Of a DNA stretch of 32,000 nucleotides, positions 1 through 23,982 are shown in pieces (within the stretch, counting starts at the first letter, position 1; each line of letters starts with the position of its first letter). This DNA comes from Candidatus Saccharimonadota bacterium (lineage in GTDB: Bacteria; Patescibacteriota; Gracilibacteria; BD1-5; UBA2023), in assembly GCA_042852035.1 (NCBI GenBank), contig BAAFHK010000001.1:540001-572000 (forward strand). Direction: 5' to 3'. The notes under the pieces are model-generated. The model was given only the letters and a program-made list of their open reading frames with translations. It made no database searches and was not told the DNA's origin. The position numbers and the translations under genes were made by a program.

Positions 1-1793
1 TTGCCAACCCAAATAAAAATGTCCGTGAACTCCCTCAAGAAATGTATATGGGTGTAGCACTGTTTCTCGCAGTTCCAGAAAAAGATGAAGATCGCCTCGC
101 ATTTGCCTTCAAGATCTACGATCAGTGCTCGACACAAAAAATCTCCCTCCCGACTCCAACCCTCATCAATGCACGTACCAATTTCTACCAGCTCACAAGC
201 TGTTTCAAGCTCAACGTCAATGATGATCTCCGCGCTATCTATCACTCAATCGAGAATATGGCGCAAATCTCAAAGTACGGAGGAGGTATAGGATCATACT
301 GGGGACATATCCGCTCTCGTGGATCATCAATCCGTGGTATCGATAATGCCTCAGCATGAGTCCTCCCGTGGCTCAAGGTCGTCAATGATACTGCCACAGC
401 CGTAAACCAACTTGGAGCTCGTCTCGGTGCTATATCTGTGACACTCGACGTCTGGCATCGTGATATCTATGACTTTCTGGATATGCAGACTGAGACGGGA
501 GATATCCGCTCGAAGGCATTTGATCTTTTTCCAGCGATTTCTATCCCAGACCTCTTCATGCGTCGTGTGGAAGAAGACGGAGAATGGACTCTCATGGATC
601 CGCATGAAGTGAATAATGTCTACGGTCGTCGCATCGAAGATACCTTCGGAACGGATTTCGAAATCTTCTATACTGATGCCGAAAAGAATCCAAAACTCAA
701 ACTCAATAAAGTCGTCAAAGCAAAAGATCTCTTCAAGACCTTCCTAAAGTCTACTGTAGAAACTGGTATGCCGTATGTCTTCTTTCGAGATACGGTCAAC
801 CGCCTCAATCCGAACAAACATGCAGGAAGTATCTATTCGACTCAGCTCTGTACCGAAATCTGTCAGAATTCATCACCAAGTGAATTTATCGAGGAGAAAA
901 ATGAAAATGGAGAAGTAACTCTTCGCTACAAGATGGGAGATACAGTTACTTGTAATCTTGCGTCTATTAACGTCGCAAAAGTAAATACCGTGAAAGATAT
1001 GGAAGAGACTGTACCGGTCATGATGCGCCTCCTCGACAATGTGGTATCGATCACAAAATATCCAATCAAAGAAGCAGAACGTACCAGTCTCCGCTATCGA
1101 CCTATCGCTATAGGGTACCTCGGACTCGCTGAGTACTTCGCGACTCACTCGATGGCATATGATTCACCAGAGGCTCGCCAAGTGGCAGATAAAATGTTCG
1201 AGGAATTCGCATGGCACGTCTATCGTACCTCTATCGATCTCGCGAAAGAGCGAGGAAAATACGACCTCTACGAAGGAAGTGAATTCGATAAAGGAATCCT
1301 CCTCGGTCACGATGAAGCATGGTTCACGAGCGAGACGACAATGAAGGATAAGTGGAAAGAAATCTTTAGCGATATGAAGCAGCATGGTGTCCGATTCGGC
1401 TATCACTTCGGTCCAGCTCCAAATACTTCTACCGCAGGTATCGTCGGAACAACCGCCGCCCTCCTCCCGATCTACAAGAAATACTTCGTCGAAACCAATC
1501 TTTCCTCTCCGACTATCCGCATCGCTCCGAAGCTCAATGCAGAAAACTTCTGGTACTATAAGGAGTATGTAAATATGGATATGAATGATGTCATCGATAT
1601 GATGTCTACTATCTATAAGTGGATCGACCAGTCTATCAGTTTTGAATGGATGATTGACCCAGCGAAGGTCTCTCCTCGCGAACTCTTCAGCTACTATATG
1701 AAGGCGTGGAAGCAAGGCGTGAAGACCGTCTACTATGTCCGCTCGCTCTCGAGTGAGGTCAGTAAGGATAATTGTGTGAGTTGTTCAGGATAG
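1..1793 (+). CDS. nrdA: Class I ribonucleotide reductase large (alpha) subunit. The 5' end lies outside the window; the first complete codon starts at 3.
   Basis: Track ORFs 42..359 and 438..1793 share a frame and are joined by a single in-frame TGA (357..359), read as ...RGIDNASA-G-VLPWLKVVND... Motifs KISLPTPTLINARTNFYQLTSCF, TQLCTEI and WIDQSISFEW are present, along with a C-terminal redox tail CVSCSG. The stop is TAG at 1791..1793. Confidence 0.9.
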
Positions 1794-1890: not shown

Positions 1891-3294
1891 ATGGCTTATA
1901 AAAATTCTACTCAAACAACATTAGACTATATTGAAAAAATTGAAAATCATCTGAAAAGTGAGTCATATAAAAGTCAAATTTGATGACAAGATATTATAAC
2001 TCAATCAAGCTCTTATAAATATAATAATGAGCAAACACTTGGAGAATCCATAGAAATTATGCGAATTGGTTTCCAAAAGATTAAAGATAATATCAGCTTA
2101 TATGATCAATGAAATATAGATTATAAGAATAATATTAATAATACTTGTATAAATAATATTTTAGCATGGTTAGAATCAAGCCCTATTTCAAATTGGCAAA
2201 ATATTATTCAAAATATTAATAATTTTATAATGTATCTGGGATATATTTGAATCTTTATTGCTTCAGAATGAGGAAAAAATAAAGACTATAAATTATTCAA
2301 TAGAAGACTATCTCAAGCAGAAGACTTTGTTTCTAAAGTTACACAAGCGGAAACATTATACAAAAAATTAAAACCAATAAGTGAAGCAATTCCATCACTA
2401 GAAAGTATTCAGAATGCAAAAACAAATAGTGATGAAATTATCAGGCTACATGAAAATATCAAGGAATTAGAACAGTCTGCAACAGAAAGTAAGAGAAATA
2501 TAGAGGAAAATGCTAAATACGCTTGAATAATGCTCTGAAAAATAACTACTGACGTAGTAGGAAAATATTTTCAAAAACTAGCAGATGAATATAAAAAGTC
2601 TGTAGAATGAGACTGGACAACTGAATTGCTAGACATAACAAATAAAGACGGAACTACTTCTCGTACTTGGAAATTATGGAAATGGAAATATTGATTTATG
2701 AAAGGTTTTTTTAATTGGAATACCTACTATTTTGTTGCGTTATCTTTAGTTGCATTCAGCCTATATTTCATATTATTCTATTCTCAATCGATTGACTGTA
2801 AAACAAATCCATTAAGCTGATCTGGTCTTATTTTACAAAATATAAATGATTGTAAGAAAAAAGTTGAAATAGGATTAGCAGTAAACAATTATGATAAAAC
2901 TTTTATAAAAGATGTGGGCGCCGAAAATATTAATTGATGAATGATAGCACTCGAAATTGTTAAAATTATAAGCAATTGAATAATTCGACTTGTTTTATTG
3001 ATGCCATCTTTACTTTTGCTATGGTTTGTAATGCAAAACAGGAATGATAAAAATCGATTAAGAAAAACATACGAGTTTAGAGAAACCACTATTAATACTC
3101 TTCCTGGCCAACTAGAACAATTAAGACAACAATGAATTCCTTCTGAAAAGATATGAGATTTTTTGGCAGGGACACTAACTCAAATATATTCTGAGCCTCT
3201 AGATGAAAAAAAAGAATCCTGAGAGGGTTTAATAACCAATTTAAAAGATACTGCTGATATTATGCAAAAATGGAAAGATATATTTAAATCATAG
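1891..3294 (+). CDS. Hypothetical membrane protein, 467 aa. It has a helical N-terminal region, then TM segments (YYFVALSLVAFSLYFILFY and IIRLVLLMPSLLLLWFVM) that flank a two-Cys loop, then a helical tail.
   Basis: I read every codon from ATG 1891 to TAG 3292..3294. The frame holds no TAA or TAG and 16 in-frame TGA. The length is exactly 1404 nt. I recognise no family. Confidence 0.7.
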
Positions 3295-3316
3295 TGCCGT
3301 ACTAATTAATAATTTA

Positions 3317-3345
3317 AATCCACCTCCTCGGTGGATTTTTCTTTG
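3317..3345 (+). terminator. Rho-independent terminator (copy 1 of a repeated terminator module)
   Basis: aatccacc (3317..3324) pairs with ggtggatt (3330..3337) around the loop tcctc, followed by a T-run. Confidence 0.75.
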
Positions 3346-3365
3346 TTTTATTCTATACTCTCTTC

Positions 3366-3752
3366 ATGAATTCATTTTTCGACGAAGCTCGCATACTCGA
3401 TCTCCCACTCGGTGAATATGTCATATTCGGGAGTGGCCCTATGGTCGTACGAGGTATCAGAGAGGGGAGAGATATCGATATTATCGTGACTCATTCACTT
3501 TTCGAGAAACTTCGCGATAAGTACTCTAAGCATATCCATGATGAGAAACTCGAACTCGGGAAAATCGAACTCTCAGCAAAGTGTCTTGATTATAGCGATG
3601 ATGAAATACTTACTCTTATTTCGACAGCAGAACTTATAGAGTGACTCCCATTCGCAACTCTCGATGAGGTTATAAAATTCAAAAAACGACTCAATCGAGA
3701 GAAGGATAGAGTTGATATCGAACTTATAGAAACCTATAGAAAAAGTATATAA
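3366..3752 (+). CDS. Minimal nucleotidyltransferase-fold protein (pol-beta / MNT-like), 128 aa
   Basis: The motif FGSGPMVVRGIREGRDIDIIV matches the hG[GS]x9-13DhD nucleotidyltransferase signature. The C-terminal KKRLNREKDRVDIELI resembles the R-x-KD-x-x-D tail of small NTases. There is one in-frame TGA (3642) and the stop is TAA 3750..3752. Confidence 0.65.
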
Positions 3753-3801
3753 TCTGATTTTTTTGGTGGATTTTTTATTCTCGAAAAGTGATAAATATAT
3801 T

Positions 3802-3830
3802 TTGACAATCATAAGAAAAATGTATGATTG
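3802..3830 (+). promoter_or_regulatory. Sigma70-like promoter
   Basis: TTGACA lies at 3802..3807. The -10 is ambiguous: TATGAT at 3823..3828 gives a spacer of only 15 nt. The element is upstream of ATG 3855. Confidence 0.45.
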
Positions 3831-3854
3831 ATTATTATTTAACATAATACCAAT

Positions 3855-4535
3855 ATGTCTCTTTCAAAGGTTTCTCAGGTAGGATTTTATCCTCACGACG
3901 AAGTAAAAACAACTATCAATCCAAATTTTATCATCAAGGCTCACCCTGATGTCACTCCCCATAGAAAAGCACATAGAATACCTGAGGATGTGCTCCATCA
4001 TCGTATAGCAAATGCAAGAAATGGAACCCTCTGGAGAGTTGAGATTCCCAGAAGAATCGGAAAAAGACTCCTCATTGTCGATAGTAATCCAATGGCAGGG
4101 TATGAATATGATTATAAAAGAAGGCTCCATGCTGCCTGATGAAGACTTGGAGCACCGACAGTGATTGGTGTCTCACTCGAGAGACTCTATGCACTCCTTG
4201 ATCCCTATTTTGAGTGATACCCGCTTCTCTGACATGCTGTGGAAAGTATTGAGTCAACACGACTCTCGATTCCATGACGCACTCATTGAATTCTCAATAT
4301 CTGACTCAAAGACTATGATCACTGGAACAGTGTTCTAGACACGACTCAAAAATGATGAATCGTAACCTATGATGCGCTTTTGCGATGACTGCGAGATAAA
4401 AAACCCATAAATAATCCACTTTATACACCTGGTGATGCAGAAAATCCTATTATTAAGGATAGGCGTACAAACTGAAAAACAGGTAAAGCAGCGAGAAGCT
4501 CTGACAGGCTCGATCCTAGTATGAGACGAATATAA
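3855..4535 (+). CDS. Hypothetical protein, 226 aa when TGA is read as Gly
   Basis: I read every codon. The first 94 codons contain no TGA. A tandem TGA-TGA follows at 4137..4142, and nine more TGA occur before the first true stop, TAA 4533..4535, which abuts a terminator. An alternative overlapping ORF exists at 4129..4338 (see findings). Confidence 0.55.
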
Positions 4536-4559
4536 ATCCACTTCCTCGGTGGATTTTTT
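4535..4559 (+). terminator. Rho-independent terminator (copy 2 of the repeated module)
   Basis: aatccac (4535..4541) pairs with gtggatt (4549..4555) around the loop tcctc, followed by tttttt. It is nearly identical to the element at 3317..3345. Confidence 0.75.
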
Positions 4560-4589
4560 CTGATTCAAAACTTCTAGAAAAGAATATTG

Positions 4590-4621
4590 TTGACATTTAT
4601 ATTTTTTAATTAAAATATAAT
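4590..4621 (+). promoter_or_regulatory. Sigma70-like promoter, probably giving a leaderless mRNA
   Basis: TTGACA lies at 4590..4595. The -10 candidates are TAAAAT (4611..4616) and TATAAT (4616..4621). The ATG is at 4623. Confidence 0.6.
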
Positions 4622-4622
4622 A

Positions 4623-5066
4623 ATGAATTCAAGAAATTCGCATTTCATCCGTGCTGTTATCACGGGGACCATCATATCCCTCTCATGAAGTAATGCGCTC
4701 GCCACATGAACCGTAGAAAGTGTAGAAAAACTCCTCACAGAGCCATCCTCTAAGCTCCGTTATAGCGGATGGTCTGCCACTGAAGAAGAACTCATATTCC
4801 TAAGATCATATGCTAAAAGACTCTCAGAATCGACTGATAACAAGATCGTCTCCATGCAATCTATGTGAGTCTATAATGGCGGGAAGTTTCTCGTTATTCG
4901 AGGCGAGGTCTATTATTTTAAAAGAGATACCTCTACTGGTTTTTCCCTCACTCACCTAAAATGACTCAAAGAAAAAACAGTCATCTGAGCAAGAGCATAT
5001 ATGGAGTGAAGAATAATAGAACCAAGAAGACCAGGAAAAGTTACTCTCCCAGATAGAGTTCTGTAG
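4623..5066 (+). CDS. Small secreted hypothetical protein, 147 aa
   Basis: The N-terminus MNSRNSHFIRAVITGTIISLSGSNALA looks like a signal peptide. I read every codon; the frame holds six in-frame TGA and ends at TAG 5064..5066. Confidence 0.6.
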
Positions 5067-5192
5067 TTAAAGGTATGTCTTTTATGCATTCCCCATAACT
5101 TAGCATTCGAAATATTTCGTATTTTTTTGAAAGGATTAGACCTACCCAAACAGCGCAAAGCTTCAGCAATGAGTGTATCCCATGTTTAATAT

Positions 5193-5221
5193 TTGACATT
5201 ATAATAATTTAATTATTATAT
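5193..5221 (+). promoter_or_regulatory. Sigma70-like promoter
   Basis: TTGACA at 5193..5198 is followed by a 17-nt spacer and TTATAT at 5216..5221. Confidence 0.55.
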
Positions 5222-5242
5222 AAAATATATAATTTTTTCTTT

Positions 5243-5911
5243 ATGTCATTAGCACCATCTATTCCAGATCATATGGACCACCTCATGAGAGAGAGTGATA
5301 TCCTCAGTCCTCTAAAAGATACGTTCTGATTTGAGATATGAGAGTTTGGGAAACCACGCATAATCCCATGAAAACAGTACCAAGCCCGCGTAGACATACC
5401 ATTAAGATACCGAGGTGAGACAGCCACACTTATTACTCTCGCTTTTAAACCTGGAGACGGAACTGGGGATATGAGTACCTACAGAGAGTGACAACTTGAT
5501 ATACCGCTAGGATTTCGATTTCTTGAGAACCCTTCGAGGGTATACCCAAGGGCAAAAAATCTCGCAGATGGAAGCCCTCTTCCTATAGAGTGAATGATAC
5601 CACTATTTGTAACCAAAGTATGAGAAACGTGGATGATACCACACAATTCAACCTTGCTTGAATTGTGAATCGTATGAGAAAATGCAATTTGAATCATCTG
5701 AAAGATGCAAACATACTCAAGACCGAGTATTTTACTCACAGTTACCGGAGAATGAGAGGAGAGATATGGAGATCCTCATGCTATATTTTCTCCTCGAGAG
5801 CCATGAGTTGAGGATGGATATCAGGTGGCATGATTTATATCAGCAAATTCAAGACAATCCAAGGTATATGAACTTCTAAAAAATCAATGAAAGCTCCCTC
5901 CAAGTTACTAG
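5243..5911 (+). CDS. Hypothetical protein, 222 aa. The 3' end is uncertain.
   Basis: The frame from ATG 5243 stays open to TAG 5909..5911 and contains 14 TGA. Across roughly 5660..5880 all three forward frames are open, so the true C-terminus cannot be fixed by eye. Confidence 0.45.
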
Positions 5912-5970
5912 AATAAATATGCTTTTCTGAAATTAGTATTTCTTATCTTATATACTTTAGTGTTGTTACT

Positions 5971-6315
5971 ATGCTGTATTCAAAAACTCGATATACGCCT
6001 GCGGGGGAAGGGAGCTCATGAAGACTTGATCGCCCTGCTTCACAGGTTCCCAAAGGTTCAAGGGAAAAATGATGGGAAACGATTGAGGTTGCTCAAGCAC
6101 GAGTAAGAGATCTTACAAAAGAAGTCGCCTACAGAATGCGCGTAGTAGAAGGTCATTTTGATATTACAGAAGCTCACATGACACACGTAAAACTAGAGAC
6201 AACGAGAGGTGCTATAGAAAGAGTACGGAGATTAATTGGCTGAAGCTTTGCGAATCAAGTTCAATTCGCTCAGGAGCTCGCTCGACTAGGAAAACTCGAA
6301 AAAAATCTACCATAA
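5971..6315 (+). CDS. Hypothetical protein, 114 aa, predicted helical
   Basis: I read every codon from ATG 5971 to TAA 6313..6315. The frame contains three TGA. A possible -10, TATACT, lies at 5951..5956. Confidence 0.55.
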
Positions 6316-6339
6316 TCGCCATGTTGATGGTTTTTATAG

Positions 6340-6364
6340 CCTATCGTATTCGATAGGTTTTTTT
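6340..6364 (+). terminator. Rho-independent terminator
   Basis: cctatcg (6340..6346) pairs with cgatagg (6351..6357) around a 4-nt loop, followed by seven T. Confidence 0.8.
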
Positions 6365-6412
6365 GGGTGTACTATATATTTCTTGTGAATCATCAGACAT
6401 GAAAGAATACAT

Positions 6413-6440
6413 TTGACATTTTTAATATTTAAAATATAAG
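6413..6440 (+). promoter_or_regulatory. Sigma70-like promoter, leaderless configuration
   Basis: TTGACA at 6413..6418 is followed by a 16-nt spacer and TATAAG at 6435..6440. The ATG at 6448 lies 8 nt after the -10. Confidence 0.65.
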
Positions 6441-6447
6441 TATATTT

Positions 6448-7260
6448 ATGCAACGACTTCTTCAAGTACCTTGAATAATACTTCGGGCCATACCTGGAAA
6501 TAGGCTCGGTATGCTCACTCTCAGAAATACGATCAATAAAGCCCTCGAAGGGATGACTCAACGCGATCTTCTCACCATCAAAAATGAAATCACTCTCCGA
6601 CTTGGTTGAGAAAGTGAATATTGGAAATATACACTCTGATCTGGGAAAGACCTTGATGAATCCATATACGATTCTCTCTTTAAAGAAATTATTGCTCCAA
6701 CACTTGGTATTTCTCAGCTTTCTCCCGTATATTATGGACAAAGGAAAGAAATTGTAAGGAATTTTATCTCTTGCCTTGAGGACAGGCTACGAAATTTAAA
6801 TGAGGAAACTCCAGAATTAGGATCCGTTTTAATAGACCGTGAAACCATTCTTCGAATAAGTAGACTGGAATGATTCTGAGTAGTCGTAGCACATCTGGAA
6901 GAGTCTAATAAACTTGCCCAAAATTGATTCAATCATGTGGCATATTCTGAAATGATGAAAGCGATAGAAAAAATATTAAAAAAAATGTGTCTTATCTATC
7001 ATCGTGATGCGTATACGAAAGAATATGGTGAAACACCTATAAATGCAAAAATGGAAGATATACTTAAATTTCTCAGAAAGCTCCGTTGGAATGATCGACA
7101 ATACATAAAGCCAATCGATGATTTAAATAAGTTTGCAAATGATGATAAGCATGCAATTACACAAAGATGAAACATAGGAACGATAGAACAATACGACTAT
7201 AATTGAGTTATTTGTTTTATTCTTGATTGGATAGATTGACTCAACAAATCAATACAATAG
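6448..7260 (+). CDS. Hypothetical protein, 270 aa. The C-terminal part may be DUF4145/HEPN-like.
   Basis: The frame joins track ORF 6937..7170 to upstream and downstream sequence through TGA codons, ending at TAG 7258..7260. The C-terminus ...KAIEKILKKMCL...ILKFLRKLRWNDRQYIKPIDDLNKFANDDKHAI resembles the ...IRxxGNxxAH ending of DUF4145-type helical domains. This is recall only and has not been verified. Confidence 0.55.
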
Positions 7261-7266
7261 GAAATA

Positions 7267-7294
7267 TTGACAATAATTTTTTATTAAATATTAT
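7267..7294 (+). promoter_or_regulatory. Sigma70-like promoter
   Basis: TTGACA at 7267..7272 is followed by a 16-nt spacer and TATTAT at 7289..7294. The predicted leader to ATG 7366 is about 64 nt. Confidence 0.6.
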
Positions 7295-7365
7295 TTATCC
7301 GTATCTGTAAGTCCGCCTACTGTTGTAGGTTGGGTGTTTGCAGTACAAAATCATGAGGAGAACCC

Positions 7366-7803
7366 ATGGGCATTGGACTCGCAATTGGCCTTGCTCTGGA
7401 TTTCGGTGGACTCATCGGTCAGGGTGATGGCATCGGCGGTGATGGCGATGGAGAAAGCAGCTCGGGCAGCGGTGGTGACGGGGGGAGTTTTCTCTCCGAT
7501 GCCGCATCAATGCTCGGGGGGAGTGTTGACGAACGTCGGATGATCCGCATCCCGCTTCGGAAAATCCCTTACGCACTGAGGATGCTTCCCCTTGTCATGC
7601 CATCCTTGGCTCTCGCAGCTGAGAAATCTGGAGCGAAGGGATGGGGTGATCGTTGGGCCATCTACGTTGGGCCTATCTTCACCTTCGCGCTGTTCTATGT
7701 GACGATTGGTGGCTGCTTCGGTGGCTTCAACTGCTTTGCATGGGGTGGCGGACTCAAGCTCGGGAACATCGGTCTTGGTGTCCTCTTCCCGATCGGGAAA
7801 TAG
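7366..7803 (+). CDS. Glycine-rich (34 of 145 residues) small membrane protein, glycine-zipper-like, in a GC-rich compositional island
   Basis: The ORF is intact under the standard code. GAGGAG (7354..7359) sits 6 nt upstream of the ATG. Codon first positions are strongly enriched in G. The sequence runs MGIGLAIGLALDFGGLIG...IGGCFGGFNCFAWGGGLKLGNIGLGVLFPIGK. All 34 Gly codons are GGN and none is TGA. Confidence 0.6.
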   Translation: MGIGLAIGLALDFGGLIGQGDGIGGDGDGESSSGSGGDGGSFLSDAASMLGGSVDERRMIRIPLRKIPYALRMLPLVMPSLALAAEKSGAKGWGDRWAIYVGPIFTFALFYVTIGGCFGGFNCFAWGGGLKLGNIGLGVLFPIGK

Positions 7804-7835
7804 TGGCAACACGTTTCCCGACAACCCCAAGGAAT

Positions 7836-7859
7836 GCCTGCACTCGCAGGCGCCTTTTT
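7836..7859 (+). terminator. Rho-independent terminator (GC-rich stem)
   Basis: gcctgc (7836..7841) pairs with gcaggc (7846..7851) around the loop actc, followed by gcc and ttttt. A second hairpin, cgggaaa/tttcccg, lies at 7794..7820. Confidence 0.7.
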
Positions 7860-7862
7860 ATA

Positions 7863-7891
7863 TTGACTCAATAAGAAAATTGTGTTATAAA
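7863..7891 (+). promoter_or_regulatory. Sigma70-like promoter with an extended -10
   Basis: TTGACT at 7863..7868 is followed by a 17-nt spacer that ends in TGT, then TATAAA at 7886..7891. Confidence 0.65.
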
Positions 7892-7919
7892 TTAGTATAT
7901 TGTTACTTTCGTCACTTTT

Positions 7920-8831
7920 ATGAAGGCTTGAGCTCCAGAAGAACATAATGATACACCAGAAACGCTTCCTCACGACCTTCTGAGGAGTATAGAAATATGG
8001 CAAAAAACAACCCTTAGCGATATGGGATGATTCTCACTTAATGAACTTCTTTGACTCAGAAAATGACTCAGAGGACTTGGAGATGATTTGCATCCGATTG
8101 CAGCCAATTTATGAATCAGTGAGAGTGATATATCATTAATCATTAGTCAGGCTATTGTAAAGCGATCACTCCTCGAAGCGCGAGCATGAGTTCTAAACGC
8201 GCTTGATAATCGCATACAGCTTTTATGAAATAGAGCTGGTACCCCTCCACTGAGTCAGATGGCAGATAGGCATGAAGATCCTTTATATATTCCTCCGAAT
8301 TACCCAAACTGGTCAGAGAGAAAGTGGCGTAGTGTTGCCCACTTGCATAGAAAAGCAATGCGAGAAATAGCTTACAATGAACGACTCCTTGCATGGAAAC
8401 AAGAAAGAAGGGAGGAAGAGGAAAAAATAGAAAAAGAATGACAACTTTCTCGACTGATCAGCGTCTTGGAACAAAGAAGGGATATACTGAGAGAAGAAAA
8501 TCAAAGAAGAAGCGAAGAGATTGCATATAACTTATCAAAAACAATCCGCAACGAAGCCATGGAAAACATAGCTATTCTGGGATTCTATTCCTATGCAGGA
8601 GCATTTCTCGACTGCGAACTTTATTTTGCTCTTGATTATAATCTCTATAGAAGATCAAAAGAGCCTTGAAAAAAAAATAGAAAATTCTATGACCAGGTGA
8701 TTGATATACTTCAAAAAGAATTATGAAAGAGAGGCCTTTCATATGACAAAAGGGAAGTTATACGCCAATGACATGTCACCATGACCGAATGAGAGCGTGA
8801 AACTTTTATTAATCAAGTCATCTCAGATTAG
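7920..8831 (+). CDS. Hypothetical protein, 303 aa, with a charged coiled-coil-like centre (...WKQERREEEEKIEKE...)
   Basis: I read every codon. The frame joins track ORFs 8259..8441 and 8466..8669 through TGA. The first ATG after the upstream in-frame TAG (7893) is at 7920, and the stop is TAG 8829..8831. Confidence 0.55.
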
Positions 8832-8842
8832 AGAATAAATAT

Positions 8843-8871
8843 TTGACATACATATTTTATATATTTATAAT
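8843..8871 (+). promoter_or_regulatory. Consensus sigma70 promoter
   Basis: TTGACA at 8843..8848 is followed by an exact 17-nt spacer and TATAAT at 8866..8871. Confidence 0.75.
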
Positions 8872-8949: not shown

Positions 8950-9459
8950 ATGAGTGGCGATAAGTTTCTAGCATGAAATAGAGCAGATATTCTTCGAGAA
9001 AATCTAAAATGAAAAAGCTCTGAAGAAAAAGGGAAATACCTTAAAGAATTTCTCTGTGTCGCTTCTTTTAATATTGAAAATCATGCTTTTGGCTACTGGC
9101 TACTAACTCGAAACGATGGGAAGACGGCAATATTTTCTCATGAAAAAAACCAGCTCATAGAAATTCCTCATGAAAAATGAGAAGACCCTAATTTTTGAGA
9201 TATCAGCATCTTACTCTCATTAAGTCCCCGCTGAAGCAATACAAGAGTTATGATTGCTGCAATCGGTTGAATCAGACAAGAATGAGATGATCCAATACGT
9301 GATATTTCATCCCTCGGAGTCATTCATGATACAAAATTCGAAAAAATTGAATGAATTCCATCATGAGTATCCATCATGACGGGACTTAGGATATATATAT
9401 CAAAGCTTCGAGCACTTCATGCAGCAACATGAATACAAGGAGAACAAAAAATTCACTAA
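8950..9459 (+). CDS. Hypothetical protein, 169 aa
   Basis: I read every codon from ATG 8950 to TAA 9457..9459. The frame contains 10 in-frame TGA. Confidence 0.55.
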
Positions 9460-10521: not shown

Positions 10522-13500
10522 ATGTGATACCTCCTCTCATGACTCAGGATTCTTGGGATTGGTTGAGTACTTTTGAGCTCTATATTTAGCGCTTGAGAAC
10601 TTCGAGCAGCATCTGCTATATCAAATACCGTAACCTCATATGAATATGCTGAGCTTAATAATTGTATTATTCCTATTTGAGAATCCAGCTGTACTGCAAC
10701 CCTTGTCGTATATGGACCTACTGGGATGACTTATACAGTAAAAAATCTCACAAGAGCAATAACATCAAGTAATATTATTACTCCAAATAACTATATCCTC
10801 TACTACGATACAAGATATGCTTACGTACTCAAGGATACCATTTTGGGTGATGCCGCTAATCGACTCACGTACTGAGATAATGATCTTACCATAACTCCTC
10901 CAGGAACAAATATCGCAAGCCTAAAAGCTGTAGGGAATGCATCTTGTGCAAGCTGAAGTGCTTGGAATTGAAAAATTTGTAGCCTTCCAAATCCTCCTGA
11001 ACAATCTGATGGAACCACTACCAGTATTGTCACGATAAAATCAGGAAATTGAGATACTTCGTATTCTTTTGATCTTCCAAAAAATATTTCAAAGAATTAT
11101 TACATGCCAGATCAGGTTGAGAAAAAAATAAGTATTCCTAGCACTACTTCAGTACTCAATATTACTCTCTCAAGCACGAAAGACAGATGTAGCATTTCGC
11201 CAAACTATTCTACAGATAGTGGTCTTATCTTTTCAAGCAATGCAAAAGACTTCATGAAATCGGGGCTCCAAAGCGCAACCACTACAATTCCCGTATTTGC
11301 CACTTATTCAAGCATTGCAAGCTCAAGTATATCATATGGAAAGCTTTCAAGTATTTCTATCAGTTGTGATAATTATACAGAACTCGTGAAAGATCTTATA
11401 ATTTTTAAGTTATCTTCTCTTTCTTCAGTTCCTCCAGTCACAGATAGAACCATGAAAGCATCAAATTGCAGTATATCAATATGAAAAGGAACCTGTACAT
11501 CTACAGTAAGTATCAAGTCAAATCCTAGCTTTTACTACAGCCTGGAAAATAGCACTCGATGACTAACAATGACAAATGCATTCTATCCAGGAAGTTCTCT
11601 CACCCTATCAAGCTCACCCCTTGGAGAGGAAGCGGCAAACTCTCTTACAAATGGAATAAATTCTCTGCGCCTCAAAGAAGGAGATAAAATCGTAACGAGC
11701 ACCCAAGCAACAGCAAGTTGTGTATCTTGAAGTACCTGGAACGGGCAACTCTGTAAAGAAAATGCTCCTATAACCCCTCTTGCAATCACTTGTTCAAAAA
11801 CTACTTATGAAGCATGAGATAGTATTTCGTGTAAGATATCTGGTGGATCTGGGGTAAGAATGTGTTGGCAAACTGGAACAAGTACCACTTCCCCTGTCGA
11901 ATGTACGAGTGTTGGATGGGTAATAGATGGAAGCAATCTTTATTATTCCAAAAACCTATCAACCGGAACAATCGGAAATTATACACTCTTCGTAAAGGAT
12001 GCTCTTGGAAAAAGTGCATCAACAACCGTCTCATATAAGGCTCGATACCAGGAACTTATTACCGATAACTGTACCATACCTACAGGAAAGAATAGCTGTA
12101 CTTCAACAGTTTACCTGGTTAACCCAATATCAGGAAAATCCTATGATCTAAGAAATACTACTCGCAATATTACAACCAAAAATTTCTTTACTCCAAACAG
12201 TATAGGAACACTTCCTGGAAGTAATTATCCTGTATATAAAGTAAGCACGGCTCTTTCAAATGAGAGTGCAAATATTGGAACTTACGGAACAAATAATGTT
12301 ATTGTTGTAGATAACACCATCTCAACTCTATCAGCTAAATTCATTGCGTCTTGCGAGAAATGATCTTCCTGGAATGGACAAATCTGTATGGCAACCACAA
12401 AACCTCCTGTGTCCTGCACTTTACAAGTGCGACTTTGTGAAGATGGTATCCCAATGCCAAGAAATCCAGATACATGTGAATGGCTTCCATGACAATGCGC
12501 CCCAATTCCTACAACAACAGACTCCCCACTTACGGGTTACAGTATAAACGACACAACATATCCATTCACAGGGTCAATTATCACACTCAAAGATACTGTA
12601 GTGTTCTCACTCAAATGAAAAAGTCGTCCTGGTAGCATTCTTTATTTTTACCGAACATGAGAGAAGACATATGAGACCGCTGTAGCTGATCGTACAAGTG
12701 GTGAATGGAGCTTCGCAAAAATATGGTCACCTACTGGATCTAAGGTGATTATCCCAGGAGAAAATACTTACAAACTTTCCACAGTTCCTCCAGGCACTCA
12801 AAGCTCTACTACAAATACTCAAGGAAATTCTCTCATTGCAACACAAGAATATACGCTTCGTATCAATCTCATCTCCACAAGTTCTTCAAATAATTCCGTA
12901 GTCATCGAGGCAAAAAATTGTATTATTCCTATTGGAAAAAGTACATGTGCATCTACAGTAAATGTTACCTCAAAAAAATATATCTGAACTACGGGGGGAA
13001 GGAGTTTTGATTATAGAAATTTCACTCGAAACCTCACAACATCAAATCTTTTTACGCCAAATAACGCTACCACAGTGAATGGTGGTTACCCTGTATACAC
13101 GGTAACATCAAATGCTACTGGCGATGCGGCAAACTATGCAACCATTGGCGACAATGACTTTGGGCTTATCGAATGAGGAGAGGTAATTGCAAAAGTAACC
13201 ATGACTGCAACTTGTGCCAATAAATCAAGTTGGAACGGGCAATTCTGTAAAGAAAATGCTCCTACCAATCCGATTCTGACTGGGGGAATCTTACCAAACC
13301 CCACAAATCCTTATGCAAAAATGACCGGGTGTACCATATCAGAATGATCCAGTACATGTCCTTCAACACTTATGGTATTTGCTCTAAGTGGAAAGACATT
13401 CACGGTTAAAAATGTCACAAGAAATATCGAATCAGCAAATAGTATAACCCCAGAGGATTTTCATATCGTCTGAGGAAAAGGGGTATATATATCTAAGTGA

Positions 13501-14085
13501 ACCATAAACAGTCCTGAGACTCAACAACTCACAAACGGAGTTAATTTTCTCATTATAAAAGAGAATGGACTTGTTCCTCTTACATTACAAGCAAGAGCAA
13601 TAGCTCGATGTGCCCCATGAACTACATGGAACGAGACAAAATGTATTAAAAAAAATATTCCAAATTTCTCCACAATTACGATTGAAACTGCTCAAGGTGT
13701 AAAGTCATTCGTAAATTCGAAGAGTATTTCCTTTGATCCAGCCATTGATAGCTATCTTACTCTTCGATGAGAATGACCACTTGGAAACATACAAGTATAT
13801 GAATGAAACCCTTCAAATATTATAGCCAGCAGCACTTCTCTAGATGCCCAGGGGAAATGGAAAATCACCCTCTCTCTCTGAACATCTCAAAATCCAGGAA
13901 ATCATACCTACACCATCTGGGACTGAACCAATACAAATACCGCCACTAAAATAAATGTTGACATAAAGACCTCCTCTATAAATACACCGAATAATTCTTC
14001 TAGCAATTCATGAAATACTTCATCATGAACCAGCACGAGTATATCGTCTCCACTCATAGTGGAAATGATTACTCTCTGAAACTAG
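10522..14085 (+). CDS. Large secreted/surface protein, 1187 aa, Ser/Thr/Asn-rich, with five four-cysteine modules
   Basis: I read every codon. The frame joins track ORFs 11104..11484, 11860..12363 and 12745..12987 through many TGA and ends at TAG 14083..14085. The N-terminus MGYLLSGLRILGIGGVLLSSIFSAG is hydrophobic and signal-like. Confidence 0.75.
10663..13644 (+). repeat. Five divergent modules of about 96-110 aa inside the 10522..14085 CDS
   Basis: Each module opens with C-x-I-[PS]-x-G-x3-C-x-[SA]-T and closes with C-x3-S-x-W-N-G-x2-C. The modules lie at 10663..10980, 11467..11754, 12070..12387, 12919..13248 and 13330..13644. A 34-nt stretch, tggaacgggcaaNtctgtaaagaaaatgctccta, recurs at 11737..11770 and 13231..13264 with a single mismatch. 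Confidence 0.7.
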
Positions 14086-14144: not shown

Positions 14145-14615
14145 ATGCTTCAAATCGTACACAAAAAACTTCTCGTCGTCTGAATTATCTTTCTTTTAAG
14201 CTGGATTTTTTGAAGTTTTCTTATTCATAAATTCGAAGCCTGATATCCAATAGGAGAAAATTATTTTAATGCCTTCTACTTTACTGTTATAACAACCGCA
14301 ACCATCTGATTCTGAGATCTCGTTCCGATGACTGTAGCAGGGAAGTGGCTCACCATGGGATATGCCATATTCTATGTTCCTCTCTTTCTCTATGTAATGA
14401 CCCTCCTTTTTCAGTCAAATCTCCATAAACTCAGACAATCTGATGAAATTCTTCATAAAGAGATAACCGATGTGGAATCAGATGTTAATATTATTCTTGA
14501 TGGCATGAAGCAAGCTATAGAAGATACTTGATGAGTCGAGCCATGAAACACCGGAGAGCCAAAACACCATCATAAGAAACCACGAAAAAGAAAACTTATT
14601 GCAAAAAGTGAGTAG
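14145..14615 (+). CDS. Minimal two-TM potassium channel (KcsA-like pore), 156 aa with a basic C-terminal tail
   Basis: The selectivity filter TTATIGFGD lies at 14292..14318, and both filter glycines are encoded by TGA (14307, 14313). TM helices flank the filter. The frame includes track ORF 14328..14531 and ends at TAG 14613..14615. Confidence 0.8.
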
Positions 14616-15085: not shown

Positions 15086-15134
15086 ATACTATATCTTGTA
15101 CCTCATATACTAACTCATACACTATATGTCGACA
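15086..15134 (+). promoter_or_regulatory. Two candidate NrdR-box-like half-palindromes
   Basis: atactatatcttgtac (15086..15101) matches the remembered consensus acaCwAtATaTwGtgt at 12 of 16 positions. acactatatgtcgaca (15119..15134) matches perfectly in the left half and weakly in the right, and it overlaps the nrdB ATG. The two starts are 33 nt apart. Confidence 0.3.
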
Positions 15135-16181
15135 CAAGATGCGAAAATTATCGATAAAAATCTCATATTTAATCCTCTCGGAAATGATGATGTCGGGGCA
15201 CGTACGATTATCAAATGAGCCACAACAGGACTTTTTAATCTCAATGCAGTAAAGTATCAGTGGGCAAAAAGTCTCTATCAGGTTATGGTAGGAAATTTTT
15301 GGGTCCCAGAAAAAGTAAGCGGACTCAAAGATGATGCTCGGGATTTTTCAACCACACTTACTCCTGATGAGCAAAGGGCCTACAAAGGGATTCTTTCATT
15401 TCTCGTGTTTCTCGACTCAATTCAGACGGTAAATCTTCCGAATTTTAATGACTATATTACGAGCCCTGAGGTGAATCTTATTCTTTCCATACAAGCCTAC
15501 CAAGAAGCCATCCACAGTCAATCATATGCAACTATTCTTGAAAGCGTAGTAAGTATGGAAGAGCGCAATGAAATTTATTATTTTTGGAAAAATGATGAAA
15601 CCCTTCTTGAGAGAAATAAATACATTGGTCAGATCTACCAAGACTTTATCGACACTCCCACAGATTATAATTTTTTCCGAGGAATAGTTGCAAATTTTCT
15701 TCTGGAATCTCTCTACTTCTATAATGGCTTCGCATTTTTTGATACTCTTGTAGATCACATGAAAATGCCAGCAACTGGTCGTATGATTGCTTATATTCGA
15801 CGTGATGAGCTTACTCATGTAACTATTTTTGCAAATATTATAAAAGAAATTAAACGAGAATTCCCCGAGGTTTATAATGAATCTCTCATCCTCGACATGA
15901 TGCGTACTGCAGTTGACCAAGAAATCAAATGGTCAAAGCATATTCTCGGAAATCGTATCCCAGGAATTAATGGAGAAACAACCGAAGAATATACAAAATG
16001 GCTCGCCAATCAGCGACTCTCAATGCTTGGTCTCGAACCACTCTATCCTGATGCTATAAGCAACCCATATAAACATCTTGATCGCCTTCAGGATCCAAAT
16101 GCTGATAAAGGAAACTTCTTTGAGACAACCGTTATCAATTACACTCAGAGTTCAAGTATGGCAGGAAGTTGGGATTTTTAG
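15126..16181 (+). CDS. nrdB: Class I ribonucleotide reductase small (beta) subunit, 351 aa
   Basis: Track ORF 15285..16181 extends upstream through one TGA (15216) to ATG 15126. Ferritin-like di-iron motifs are visible (...LDSIQT..., QEAIHSQSY, ESLYFYNGFAFF, IRRDELTHV), and the C-terminal tail is ...SSSMAGSWDF. Confidence 0.9.
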
Positions 16182-23544: not shown

Positions 23545-23982
23545 ATGGCAGAACGATCACTTATTATTCTTAAACCTGATACTATTCACCGAGGACTTAT
23601 TGGAGCTGTAACAACTCGTATTGAAAATCGAGGATTTAAGATTGTTGCAATGAAGATGGCGAAGGTTACTCAAGCAAAGCTTGATGAGCACTATGGTCAC
23701 CTTACCTCAAAGCCATTTTACCCTGAGATTGTTGCCTATATGACAATGGGGCCTGTAGTATTCATGATTGTTGAAGGAGACAATGCAGTCAACGGTATGC
23801 GCCAACTTTGTGGTGCCACAGATCCAGCTCAAGCAGCTATGGGCACTGTACGTGCTGATTTCGCTACAACCATACGATACAACCTTATCCACGCATCTGA
23901 CTCAGTAGAAAATGCAACTGCTGAAATCGCACGATTCTTCGATGAGTCTGAGATTTGTGGATACGAGAGAAAAGTAATTTAA
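23545..23982 (+). CDS. ndk: Nucleoside diphosphate kinase, 145 aa
   Basis: The ORF is intact under the standard code. Motifs include LIILKPD, GFKIVAMK and NLIHASDS (active-site His region). It contains no TGA. Confidence 0.9.
   Translation: MAERSLIILKPDTIHRGLIGAVTTRIENRGFKIVAMKMAKVTQAKLDEHYGHLTSKPFYPEIVAYMTMGPVVFMIVEGDNAVNGMRQLCGATDPAQAAMGTVRADFATTIRYNLIHASDSVENATAEIARFFDESEICGYERKVI

Follow-up and report, generated by a model that had tools for sequence, protein, structure and literature searches.

A glycine-rich gene family free of in-frame TGA codons in Gracilibacteria that read TGA as glycine

We analyzed a 32-kb stretch of DNA (hereafter, the window) from contig BAAFHK010000001.1 of a Gracilibacteria genome (assembly GCA_042852035.1), belonging to the candidate phyla radiation (CPR, or Patescibacteria), and within it a short glycine-rich gene, the open reading frame (ORF) of 145 codons at positions 7366..7803. 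Coordinates are positions of the window unless a locus is named, and the labels L001-L026 denote the loci of homologues. TGA is a sense codon throughout the window; this gene encodes its glycine residues without a single TGA, is preceded by a Shine-Dalgarno (SD) sequence and lies in a GC-rich transcript of its own. As far as comparison of the homologues indicates, this standard-code appearance (no in-frame TGA, an SD sequence and a GC-rich transcript) is a family-wide trait kept by selection in place. After a completed reassignment, a former stop codon is generally regarded as a sense codon like any other, a view that this family contradicts.

A single-gene transcription unit in a TGA-recoded window

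ORFs of at least 120 amino acids (aa) in the window summed to about 2,900 aa under translation table 11, compared with about 20,000 aa when TGA was taken as sense. In alignments of orthologues between loci, in-frame TGA mostly faced TGA or glycine, and tryptophan was not among its common partners. A taxon listed as Gracilibacteria has been reported to read UGA as glycine (PMC8629427). The first-pass annotation of this DNA had placed the gene in an 'island' of code 25; instead, the whole window is recoded.

The GC content of the window is 37.7% overall. Within the gene, G+C amounted to 35/60 and 37/60 in 7381..7500, compared with 15/60 in 7201..7260 and 13/60 in 7861..7920, which reproduced exactly the contrast that had been counted by hand. 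GC content rose from 20% over the upstream 100 nt to 46% in the 5΄ untranslated region (5΄UTR) and 58% in the coding sequence (CDS), was 58% in the 3΄UTR and terminator (the same value for 7804-7858) and fell to 29% downstream. The boundaries of the GC-rich island coincide with those of the transcript, UTRs included. The codon usage of the family is shifted toward C- and G-ending codons and away from A-ending ones; GC content at third codon positions (GC3) was mostly 0.18-0.37 in the other window genes.

Positions 7267-7859 form a complete, autonomous, single-gene transcription unit consisting of a promoter, a 5΄ stem-loop, an SD sequence, the ORF and a terminator (Table 1).

Table 1. Features of the transcription unit, in window coordinates
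Feature	Position	Strand	Description
Sigma-70-type promoter	7267..7294	+	TTGACA-16-TATTAT; 11/12 positions match the consensus
5΄-terminal extended stem-loop of the 5΄UTR	7302..7345	+	Outer helix about 7302-7315 with 7331-7345; apical hairpin CCTAC/GTAGG at 7317-7329
A-rich single-stranded spacer from stem-loop to SD	7346..7354	+	Unpaired in single-sequence folds; homologues align as AAAAT/GAAAT
SD sequence GAGGAG	7355..7360	+	5 nt upstream of ATG
CDS	7366..7803	+	145 codons plus TAG; 34 glycine codons, all GGN; GC 57.5%; GC3 59.6%
TAG stop	7801..7803	+	From the first TGG of the ancestral C-terminal ...WKWW (nucleotide alignment, downstream comparison)
GC-rich 3΄UTR spacer	7804..7834	+	About 30 nt long in the window; homologues conserve its nucleotides but no protein sequence
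Intrinsic terminator	7835..7859	+	Stem 7835-7852 (7 pairs, 5 of them G-C), then TTTTT at 7855-7859

The promoter and the GC-rich terminator stem had both been proposed in the first-pass annotation and were recovered here. Only two sites in the whole 32 kb matched at least 11 of the 12 promoter positions, that of the family gene being one, and promoters with 10-11 matches were found at a matching distance in L001, L002, L004, L005, L006, L011 and L017 (70-78 nt from the end of the –10 box to the ATG). The sole stronger promoter of the window (8843-8871, TTGACA-17-TATAAT, 12/12 of the sigma-70 consensus) lies upstream of the gene at 8950-9459. A GC-rich hairpin followed by a T-run was present 3΄ of nearly every homologue, with a hairpin sequence specific to each clade.

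The SD sequence had been described as the only one in the window. This was correct, although its position had been given as 7354..7359, one nucleotide off: GGAG, GAGG or AGGA at positions –18 to –4 was found upstream of no other called gene in the window, and the same loose criterion selected 4 of 121 genes across all recoded loci. Motifs of the AGGAG or GGAGG type occupied the same place in most homologues. CPR bacteria outside one Parcubacteria subgroup generally keep the anti-SD sequence (PMC9297842). The gene would be a rare and clear case of SD-dependent initiation in a genome otherwise without SD sites.

The open reading frame encodes a conserved protein

The length of the open frame was not significant by itself, as 18% of composition-matched random sequences carried a frame of equal or greater length, and reading TGA as sense leaves nearly all six frames open. 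These observations, and a plus strand that folds somewhat better than its shuffles (z = –2.3), would suit a structured non-coding RNA in which the ORF is a by-product of few stop codons. However, the homologues speak otherwise. Eight proteins matched over their full length at 52-69% BLASTP identity; across the homologues, identity was 52-75% with full-length coverage, all insertions and deletions comprised whole codons, and the motifs VDERR, PSLALAA and GxCxGGFxC were invariant. In codon alignments third positions accounted for most differences (L002 and L018, for example, differ at 10 first, 4 second and 48 third positions), and the ratio of nonsynonymous to synonymous divergence (dN/dS) was 0.06-0.26, far below 1. 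Invariant nucleotide columns tracked codon positions 1 and 2, and invariant arginine residues were encoded variously by CGT, CGG, CGC, CGA, AGG and AGA. No Rfam family matched at the gathering threshold or at a permissive E ≤ 10, and the coding region had no conserved RNA fold (weak consensus, covariation term of –2.3 kcal/mol), the 5΄UTR stem-loop being the only conserved RNA element. Because the homologues show strict codon periodicity, low dN/dS and whole-codon indels, the sequence evidence identifies the ORF as a genuine protein-coding gene under strong purifying selection, as the first-pass annotation had held; a non-coding RNA is refuted as the sole explanation, and we assign it next to no probability.

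TGA is absent from the reading frame throughout the family

To assign a genetic code to each locus, we used the non-overlapping coding coverage under each code, stop-codon usage and read-through distances. The window, L001, L003-L008, L011, L023, L025 and L026 were recoded, as was L002, with low TGA use; L009, L010, L021 and L024 do not read TGA as sense.

A recount of the window ORF gave 12 GGT, 9 GGC, 7 GGG and 6 GGA codons and no TGA among 34 glycine codons, as had been reported. In the other window genes TGA provided 37-38% of glycine codons, and in the four nearest neighbours 47-63%, so that the earlier statement that the neighbours encode part of their glycine with TGA also held. Genes poor in TGA do exist in the window (42-1793, 1 TGA and 31 GGN; 15126-16181, 1 and 16; 23545-23982, 0 and 10), and the TGA-free trait is rare there, not unique. 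Among 89 background genes with at least 10 glycine codons, four were free of TGA, and none of the four has an SD sequence.

Across the family the absence is complete. In 12 recoded members, none of 371 glycine codons was TGA (summed log10 P of –77 at local background rates of 9-77%), and no family member has an in-frame TGA. The neighbours of some TGA-free members encode 72-77% of their glycine by TGA. In L023, for instance, where TGA makes up 77% of the neighbours' glycine codons and dnaK contains 34 TGA and 19 GGN codons, the family gene contains 28 GGN and no TGA, and in L025 it contains 33 GGN and no TGA next to a gene with 33 TGA and 13 GGN.

Several causes of this avoidance were considered and rejected. 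The trinucleotide itself is not avoided: across ten recoded members, the other two frames contained 27 and 39 TGA triplets and the coding frame none. As TGA is common out of frame, the constraint lies on in-frame reading. Pressure on GC or A content fails on the same observation and also because GGA, which is one G-to-T change from TGA with the third base unchanged, is the main glycine codon of the family genes in L023 and L025. High expression is not a sufficient cause either, since dnaK of L023 uses TGA for 64% of its glycine. The pattern indicates that the target of selection is the in-frame reading of TGA rather than the trinucleotide or GC content.

Genes of the window genome clearly differ in their use of TGA. 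The gene at 42-1793, which runs off the window start, and its counterpart in L008 (903-3533) resemble a ribonucleotide reductase by eye, with GC3 of 0.50 and 0.57 and one TGA each beside 31 and 45 GGN codons. The two copies are 74% identical, above the other shared genes, and this is a second gene of standard-code appearance in these genomes, possibly an acquired one. The genes at 15126-16181 and 23545-23982, which by eye resemble a ribonucleotide-reductase small subunit and a nucleoside-diphosphate kinase, have ordinary GC3. Directly upstream of the family gene in L006 (4002-4823) and L004 (about 3200-3800) lies another TGA-free ORF of 56-62% GC, with an Ala/Glu/Pro-rich, low-complexity product (273 aa in L006).

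Long residence and its phylogenetic setting

Synteny connects the loci of the window, L005 and L008, the last two having downstream genes in common. The adjacent upstream gene of the window (6448-7260) shares 62% identity with its counterpart directly upstream in L005, compared with about 60% for the family proteins. The similar divergence of neighbour and family gene indicates that they diverged together. Synonymous divergence (dS) between homologues was 0.7-2.7, that is, saturated, with a lowest between-clade value of about 0.7. Nevertheless, GC3 of the family gene exceeded that of its neighbours by 0.25 in the window, 0.24 in L005 and 0.27 in the standard-code L009, and by 0.14 to 0.20 in L001, L003, L004, L006 and L023; most members of the clade with the invariant VDERR motif (the VDERR subfamily) have an excess of 0.14-0.27. 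By our own two-state decay estimate, a neutral excess would by this divergence have dropped to at most one quarter of its value. Both the excess in GC3 and the lack of TGA have outlasted the saturation of dS and are therefore maintained in place rather than a relic. On these comparisons the family gene is vertically inherited in this Gracilibacteria lineage.

The first-pass annotation had reasoned that code-25 homologues with the same composition together with TGA codons would reduce the composition to amino-acid content. The result was mixed: the composition is shared, but the TGA codons are absent. Amino-acid content alone thus does not explain the composition either, and GC3 and the UTRs are elevated as well.

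The annotation had also proposed a standard-code, higher-GC organism, the host or prey of the cell, as the source. Standard-code relatives of higher GC content do exist (L021 and L024, 43-51% GC), but these are CPR genomes and not plausible hosts. TGA ends 5 of 8 genes in L021 and 5 of 16 in L024, AGGAG precedes most genes, and the composition of the family gene is ordinary there; what is exceptional in the window is therefore the norm in these relatives. L021 was placed solely through an SMC-like neighbour, whose matches at 65-73% identity carry the names Lloydbacteria, Parcubacteria and Paceibacterota.

In a neighbour-joining tree with bootstrap, the VDERR clade including L021 had a value of 0.98; internal nodes were weak (0.2-0.4), leaving the interior branching unresolved. 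The standard-code L009 protein is 70% identical to those of the recoded L001, L002 and L018, to which the window protein is 60-61% identical, and some exchange across the code boundary is likely from these values. Gene contexts differ between clades. In L009 (labelled Nomurabacteria, standard code), the family gene lies inside a block of about 4 kb (3225-7305) where GC3 is 0.60-0.70 for most genes and SD-like motifs precede several of them, flanked by genes with GC3 of 0.21-0.31; the block may be an acquired island.

Signs of mobility were sought around the gene. The 32-kb window contained no tRNA or tmRNA gene, and Pfam and PHROG scans of the neighbours returned nothing except the ion-channel gene at 14145-14615. 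As the flanking genes are unannotatable by Pfam and PHROG, the lack of mobility genes is weak negative evidence. The family gene resembles horizontally acquired alien genes in its strong deviation from the genome in GC content and codon usage and in its own expression signals. It differs from them in that the deviation is conserved in syntenic orthologues despite saturated synonymous divergence, and no donor or mobility genes were found. Marks of recent transfer were likewise missing: the locus is syntenic, no donor of low dS was found, and no flanking tRNA or integrase gene was found in these unannotatable flanks, a weak negative.

A stable mRNA with a covarying 5΄ stem-loop

Single-sequence folds of the homologous 5΄UTRs gave the same architecture as in the window, a stem-loop of about 45 nt. 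RNAalifold on the 5΄UTRs predicted 13 pairs, 10 of them with compensatory changes; 95% of cells were paired in the stem-loop compared with 38-54% in slid controls, and none of 500 shuffles reached the observed values. The sequence of the apical hairpin differs clade by clade. In most members the helix begins about 1-8 nt past the predicted transcription start, a start inferred from the promoter only. In the coding region, by contrast, a conserved fold was not supported, so that the structured-RNA check suggested in the first-pass annotation was negative for the gene body and positive for its leader, which represents a covariation-supported 5΄UTR element.

We then compared the folding energies of the mRNA. 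The coding region was more stable than synonymous shuffles in 16 of 16 homologues, with a mean z of –2.13 compared with –0.47 for 20 control genes (P = 7e-5). Of 18 window genes tested, this one has the most stable start region (–30 to +30), at –13.3 kcal/mol; most of the others fold at about –2 to –6 kcal/mol. Such a structured start region gives a reason for the SD sequence of the gene. Together, the alignments and folds indicate an mRNA with a covarying stem-loop at its 5΄ end, a strong terminator at its 3΄ end and a fold more stable than those of its synonymous shuffles.

Known mRNA stabilizers with a 5΄-terminal stem-loop include the 5΄UTR hairpin of Escherichia coli ompA and the SD-dependent stabilizers of Bacillus mRNAs. 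The family resembles these, from its predicted start, in a paired 5΄ end, a single-stranded spacer, a strong SD sequence, a single-gene mRNA and a small envelope-type protein, and its 5΄-end helix is likewise conserved, kept by compensatory changes. It differs from them in having no sequence relationship and no Rfam family, and both the start and an effect on half-life are predicted here.

A CPR-restricted family with a predicted glycine-rich β-sheet

The family is an orphan of about 30 sequence clusters restricted to CPR/Patescibacteria. Searches recovered 8 and then 19 proteins among 5.8 billion and 10 representatives among 1.84 billion; the gene occurred in 7 of 185,579 GTDB species representatives and at 5 metagenome loci. 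Most members belong to TGA-recoded Gracilibacteria and a few to standard-code relatives. The donor search that the first-pass annotation had recommended ended without a donor: no homologue was found outside CPR-type contigs among the 5.8 and 1.84 billion proteins, and none in INPHARED phages, IMG/VR or PLSDB plasmids. No locus contained a paralogue. Single proteins and alignments had no match in Pfam, NCBIfam, PHROGs, PADLOC or PDB sequences, with no Pfam family at E ≤ 10 for the window protein.

The product had been likened to glycine-zipper proteins. It is indeed small and very glycine-rich, with GxxxG spacings in the hydrophobic segments at both ends. Pfam glycine-zipper families include Gly-zipper_Omp, Gly-zipper_YMGG and Rick_17kDa_Anti, and neither these nor any other Pfam model matched any of 21 family members at E ≤ 1. 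An AlphaFold2 model built with 21 sequences had a mean predicted local distance difference test score (pLDDT) of 70 (a run with 8 sequences, at pLDDT 45, was set aside) and predicted confident β-strands at residues 2-11 (one strand) and 97-144 (four strands), with pLDDT of 81-94. Only residues 64-87 were helical, as a hydrophobic helix, and the acidic linker was disordered. The predicted architecture is thus an N-terminal strand, an acidic, disordered Gly/Ser/Asp linker, a hydrophobic helix and a four-stranded, Gly/aromatic-rich C-terminal sheet. In the model the glycine-rich segments resemble a five-stranded sheet, and the predicted fold is a glycine-rich β-sheet with one hydrophobic helix rather than glycine-zipper helices. 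Foldseek searches of the model against PDB and BFVD returned nothing significant (best E of 0.36). The hydrophobic helix is probably a membrane anchor, and a sheet with alternating hydrophobic residues, the aromatic C-terminus and the helix suggest a membrane-associated, possibly oligomeric assembly. As a protein family, it would be new and limited to CPR bacteria, with a glycine-rich β-sheet predicted at high confidence.

A bacteriocin or contact-dependent toxin, also named in the first-pass annotation, received no support from family models or neighbours. Class II bacteriocins have a double-glycine leader peptide, an adjacent C39-peptidase ABC exporter and an immunity gene. Here the N-terminus belongs to the mature fold, as its most conserved and hydrophobic part, and the neighbours lack Pfam domains of that kind. 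Contact-dependent or polymorphic toxins are domains at the end of a large delivery protein with a cognate immunity gene downstream, whereas the gene is a free-standing unit of 145 codons with its own promoter and terminator, and no related neighbours were found.

In some members of a second clade (P0016 and P0018; L025 4086-4622), a cysteine-rich segment with many CxxC-like spacings takes the place of the acidic Gly/Ser/Asp linker, which may point to a linker that binds metal or is exposed and rich in disulfides.

TGA at the stop position

The C-terminus ends within a residue of WW throughout the family, leaving aside the question of TGA as a stop. The codon right after the conserved ...WKWW is TGA in L002, L005, L008, L017, L018 and L026, all of which are recoded where this could be tested; at the stop position TAA occurs in about 9 lineages, TGA in 6 and TAG in 2. 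The next TAA or TAG follows after 5 codons in L026, 18 in L017, 19 in L008, 31 in L005, 68 in L002 and 132 in L018. Beyond the TGA the sequence is conserved as 3΄UTR and terminator and not as protein, and close relatives differ in frame. Pairs of TGA-ending members had dN/dS of 0.06 and 0.18 at dS of 0.7-0.8; purifying selection at this dS with TGA in place indicates that the TGA-ending state is old. The prfB gene was not found in any BD1-5 genome (PMC6851277). Given this reported absence, the TGA-ending products would be extended, or their mRNAs would lack a stop codon, unless UGA ends translation there. In the window, the ancestral stop position two codons past the TAG (7807-7809) is now CAA, and the TAG, a change from TGG, may be the repair of a TGA-ending state. 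For sense and stop codons alike, the family evolves as if under the standard code.

Explanations for the standard-code appearance

The best reading, to which we would give about an even chance, is selection in place for a stable, SD-initiated mRNA free of UGA decoding, errors at glycine being unusually costly in this protein. The unit would be built for a long-lived mRNA that is translated efficiently and accurately. UGA, decoded by a dedicated tRNA-Gly(UCA), may be the slowest or most error-prone means of inserting glycine, and it may be exposed to near-cognate tRNA-Trp. If about 30 structural glycine residues are packed in a sheet that probably oligomerizes, each error or stall would be costly, which would favour GGN at every glycine. 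The SD sequence would be needed if a GC-rich, structured start cannot use the unstructured, AU-rich, SD-independent initiation of other genes.

Several points weigh against this. Its rationale of efficiency and fidelity is inferential, and the TGA usage of dnaK in L023 (64% of glycine), a normally abundant protein, means that the present protein would have to be especially sensitive. It leaves unaccounted for the TGA at the stop position in six recoded lineages, two pairs of which are under purifying selection. The second clade (L007, L025 and L026) avoids TGA without a marked GC3 excess, and GC-richness and TGA avoidance may therefore have separate causes. Finally, the coding region has no conserved RNA fold, so that structural selection could concern only generic stability.

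Lateral circulation is a less probable explanation, which we regard as unlikely though worth weighing. A self-sufficient cassette with its own promoter, SD sequence and terminator would move among CPR lineages of differing codes; its lack of sense TGA, its TGA stops, its SD sequence and its higher GC content would stem from standard-code donors and be refreshed by repeated transfer or through gene conversion by newly arrived alleles. The very patchy distribution (7 of 185,579 species representatives, about 30 clusters among billions of proteins), the presence in both recoded and standard-code CPR genomes with code states interleaved on the tree, the closeness of L009 to the recoded L001, L002 and L018, the GC3-rich block around the L009 copy, and a mix of codons at the stop position resembling that of a standard-code genome such as L024 are all consistent with such movement. 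However, synteny and matching neighbour divergence in the window, L005 and L008 amount to long residence, the GC3 excess is still +0.24 to +0.25 where decay to one quarter or less is estimated, and internal nodes of the tree have weak bootstrap values of 0.2-0.4. Searches found neither mobile-element nor tRNA genes, and no copy on a phage or plasmid. Moreover, neutral long-resident copies should hold some TGA and none does, so that selection in place would be needed anyway.

We consider it improbable, more so than lateral circulation, that the gene is kept readable under both codes since its product is required when UGA is not read as glycine, with TGA as an acceptable stop. The conditions proposed are a code-11-compatible phage that imposes RF2-like termination or depletes tRNA-Gly(UCA), an equivalent stress, or delivery to a standard-code partner cell. 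Among the readings weighed, only this one covers both the absence of in-frame TGA and its repeated occurrence at the stop position, in copies under purifying selection (dN/dS of 0.06 and 0.18), and it fits the self-sufficient, strong initiation signals. The closest precedent is the code-11-compatible phages predicted for Gracilibacteria and Absconditabacteria (Liu et al., mBio 2023, PMC10746230), which show both traits: in a code-25 setting, their coding sequences lack in-frame TGA, sometimes have TGA at gene ends and are readable under either code (PMC10746230). The family gene shares with them the lack of in-frame TGA in a code-25 host. It differs in being chromosomal, syntenic and vertically inherited, the window copy lying on a 750 kb contig among neighbours without PHROG matches, in having a close back-up stop after TGA in only 1 of 6 TGA-ending members (L026), and in that selection against TGA in place can be demonstrated for it. 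Against the proposal, the scenario is elaborate and none of the proposed conditions has direct evidence behind it, PADLOC gave no matching defence family and no defence or phage genes lie nearby, most members end in TAA, and prfB is reported absent from BD1-5 genomes (PMC6851277). If true, it would make this the first code-robust host gene and UGA decoding conditional or contested in these bacteria.

Recent capture from a standard-code, higher-GC host or prey, encoding a glycine-zipper membrane-active toxin or bacteriocin, as the first-pass annotation had it, is very improbable: composition, SD sequence and lack of TGA are atypical for the genome and standard-code relatives exist, but those relatives are other CPR bacteria and not plausible hosts, no non-CPR homologue appeared in either protein collection, synteny, the co-divergence of the neighbour and anomalies that persist at saturated dS rule out a recent event, none of the glycine-zipper, bacteriocin or toxin families matched and no transporter, immunity or delivery genes are adjacent, and the model gives β-strands where glycine-zipper helices were proposed.

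Over a long evolutionary time, a single conserved gene has kept TGA out of about 30 glycine positions in genomes where TGA supplies as much as three quarters of the glycine codons. Either the decoding of UGA is truly costly for particular genes of code-25 bacteria or some genes have to remain readable under the standard code, and the family can be used as a direct probe for both ideas.

Further observations on the window and the homologous loci

Two giant genes of the window, at 10522-14085 on the plus strand (1187 aa) and from 27184 to beyond 31998 on the minus strand (>1600 aa), are repetitive and Ser/Thr/Asn-rich with recurring Cys-containing modules; they probably encode surface proteins, and TGA makes up about a third to 40% of their glycine codons.

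The homologous loci span a wide range of TGA use. L023 (JGI 3300073880, 24% GC) is an extreme code-25 genome, in which TGA is about 6% of all codons and the background GC3 is about 0.10. L010 (labelled Saccharibacteria) has nine long genes, some of which look like ribosomal proteins by eye, and a synthetase-like gene of 593 aa, all without in-frame TGA either as sense or as stop; the stops are all TAA or TAG, and TGA appears unused. L002 (Logan SRR22315507, GC 43%) is recoded with TGA at 9% of glycine codons, and the genes of its locus, unusual in combination for a CPR genome, include those for cytochrome bd oxidase, a flavodoxin, a radical-SAM enzyme and an MFS transporter.

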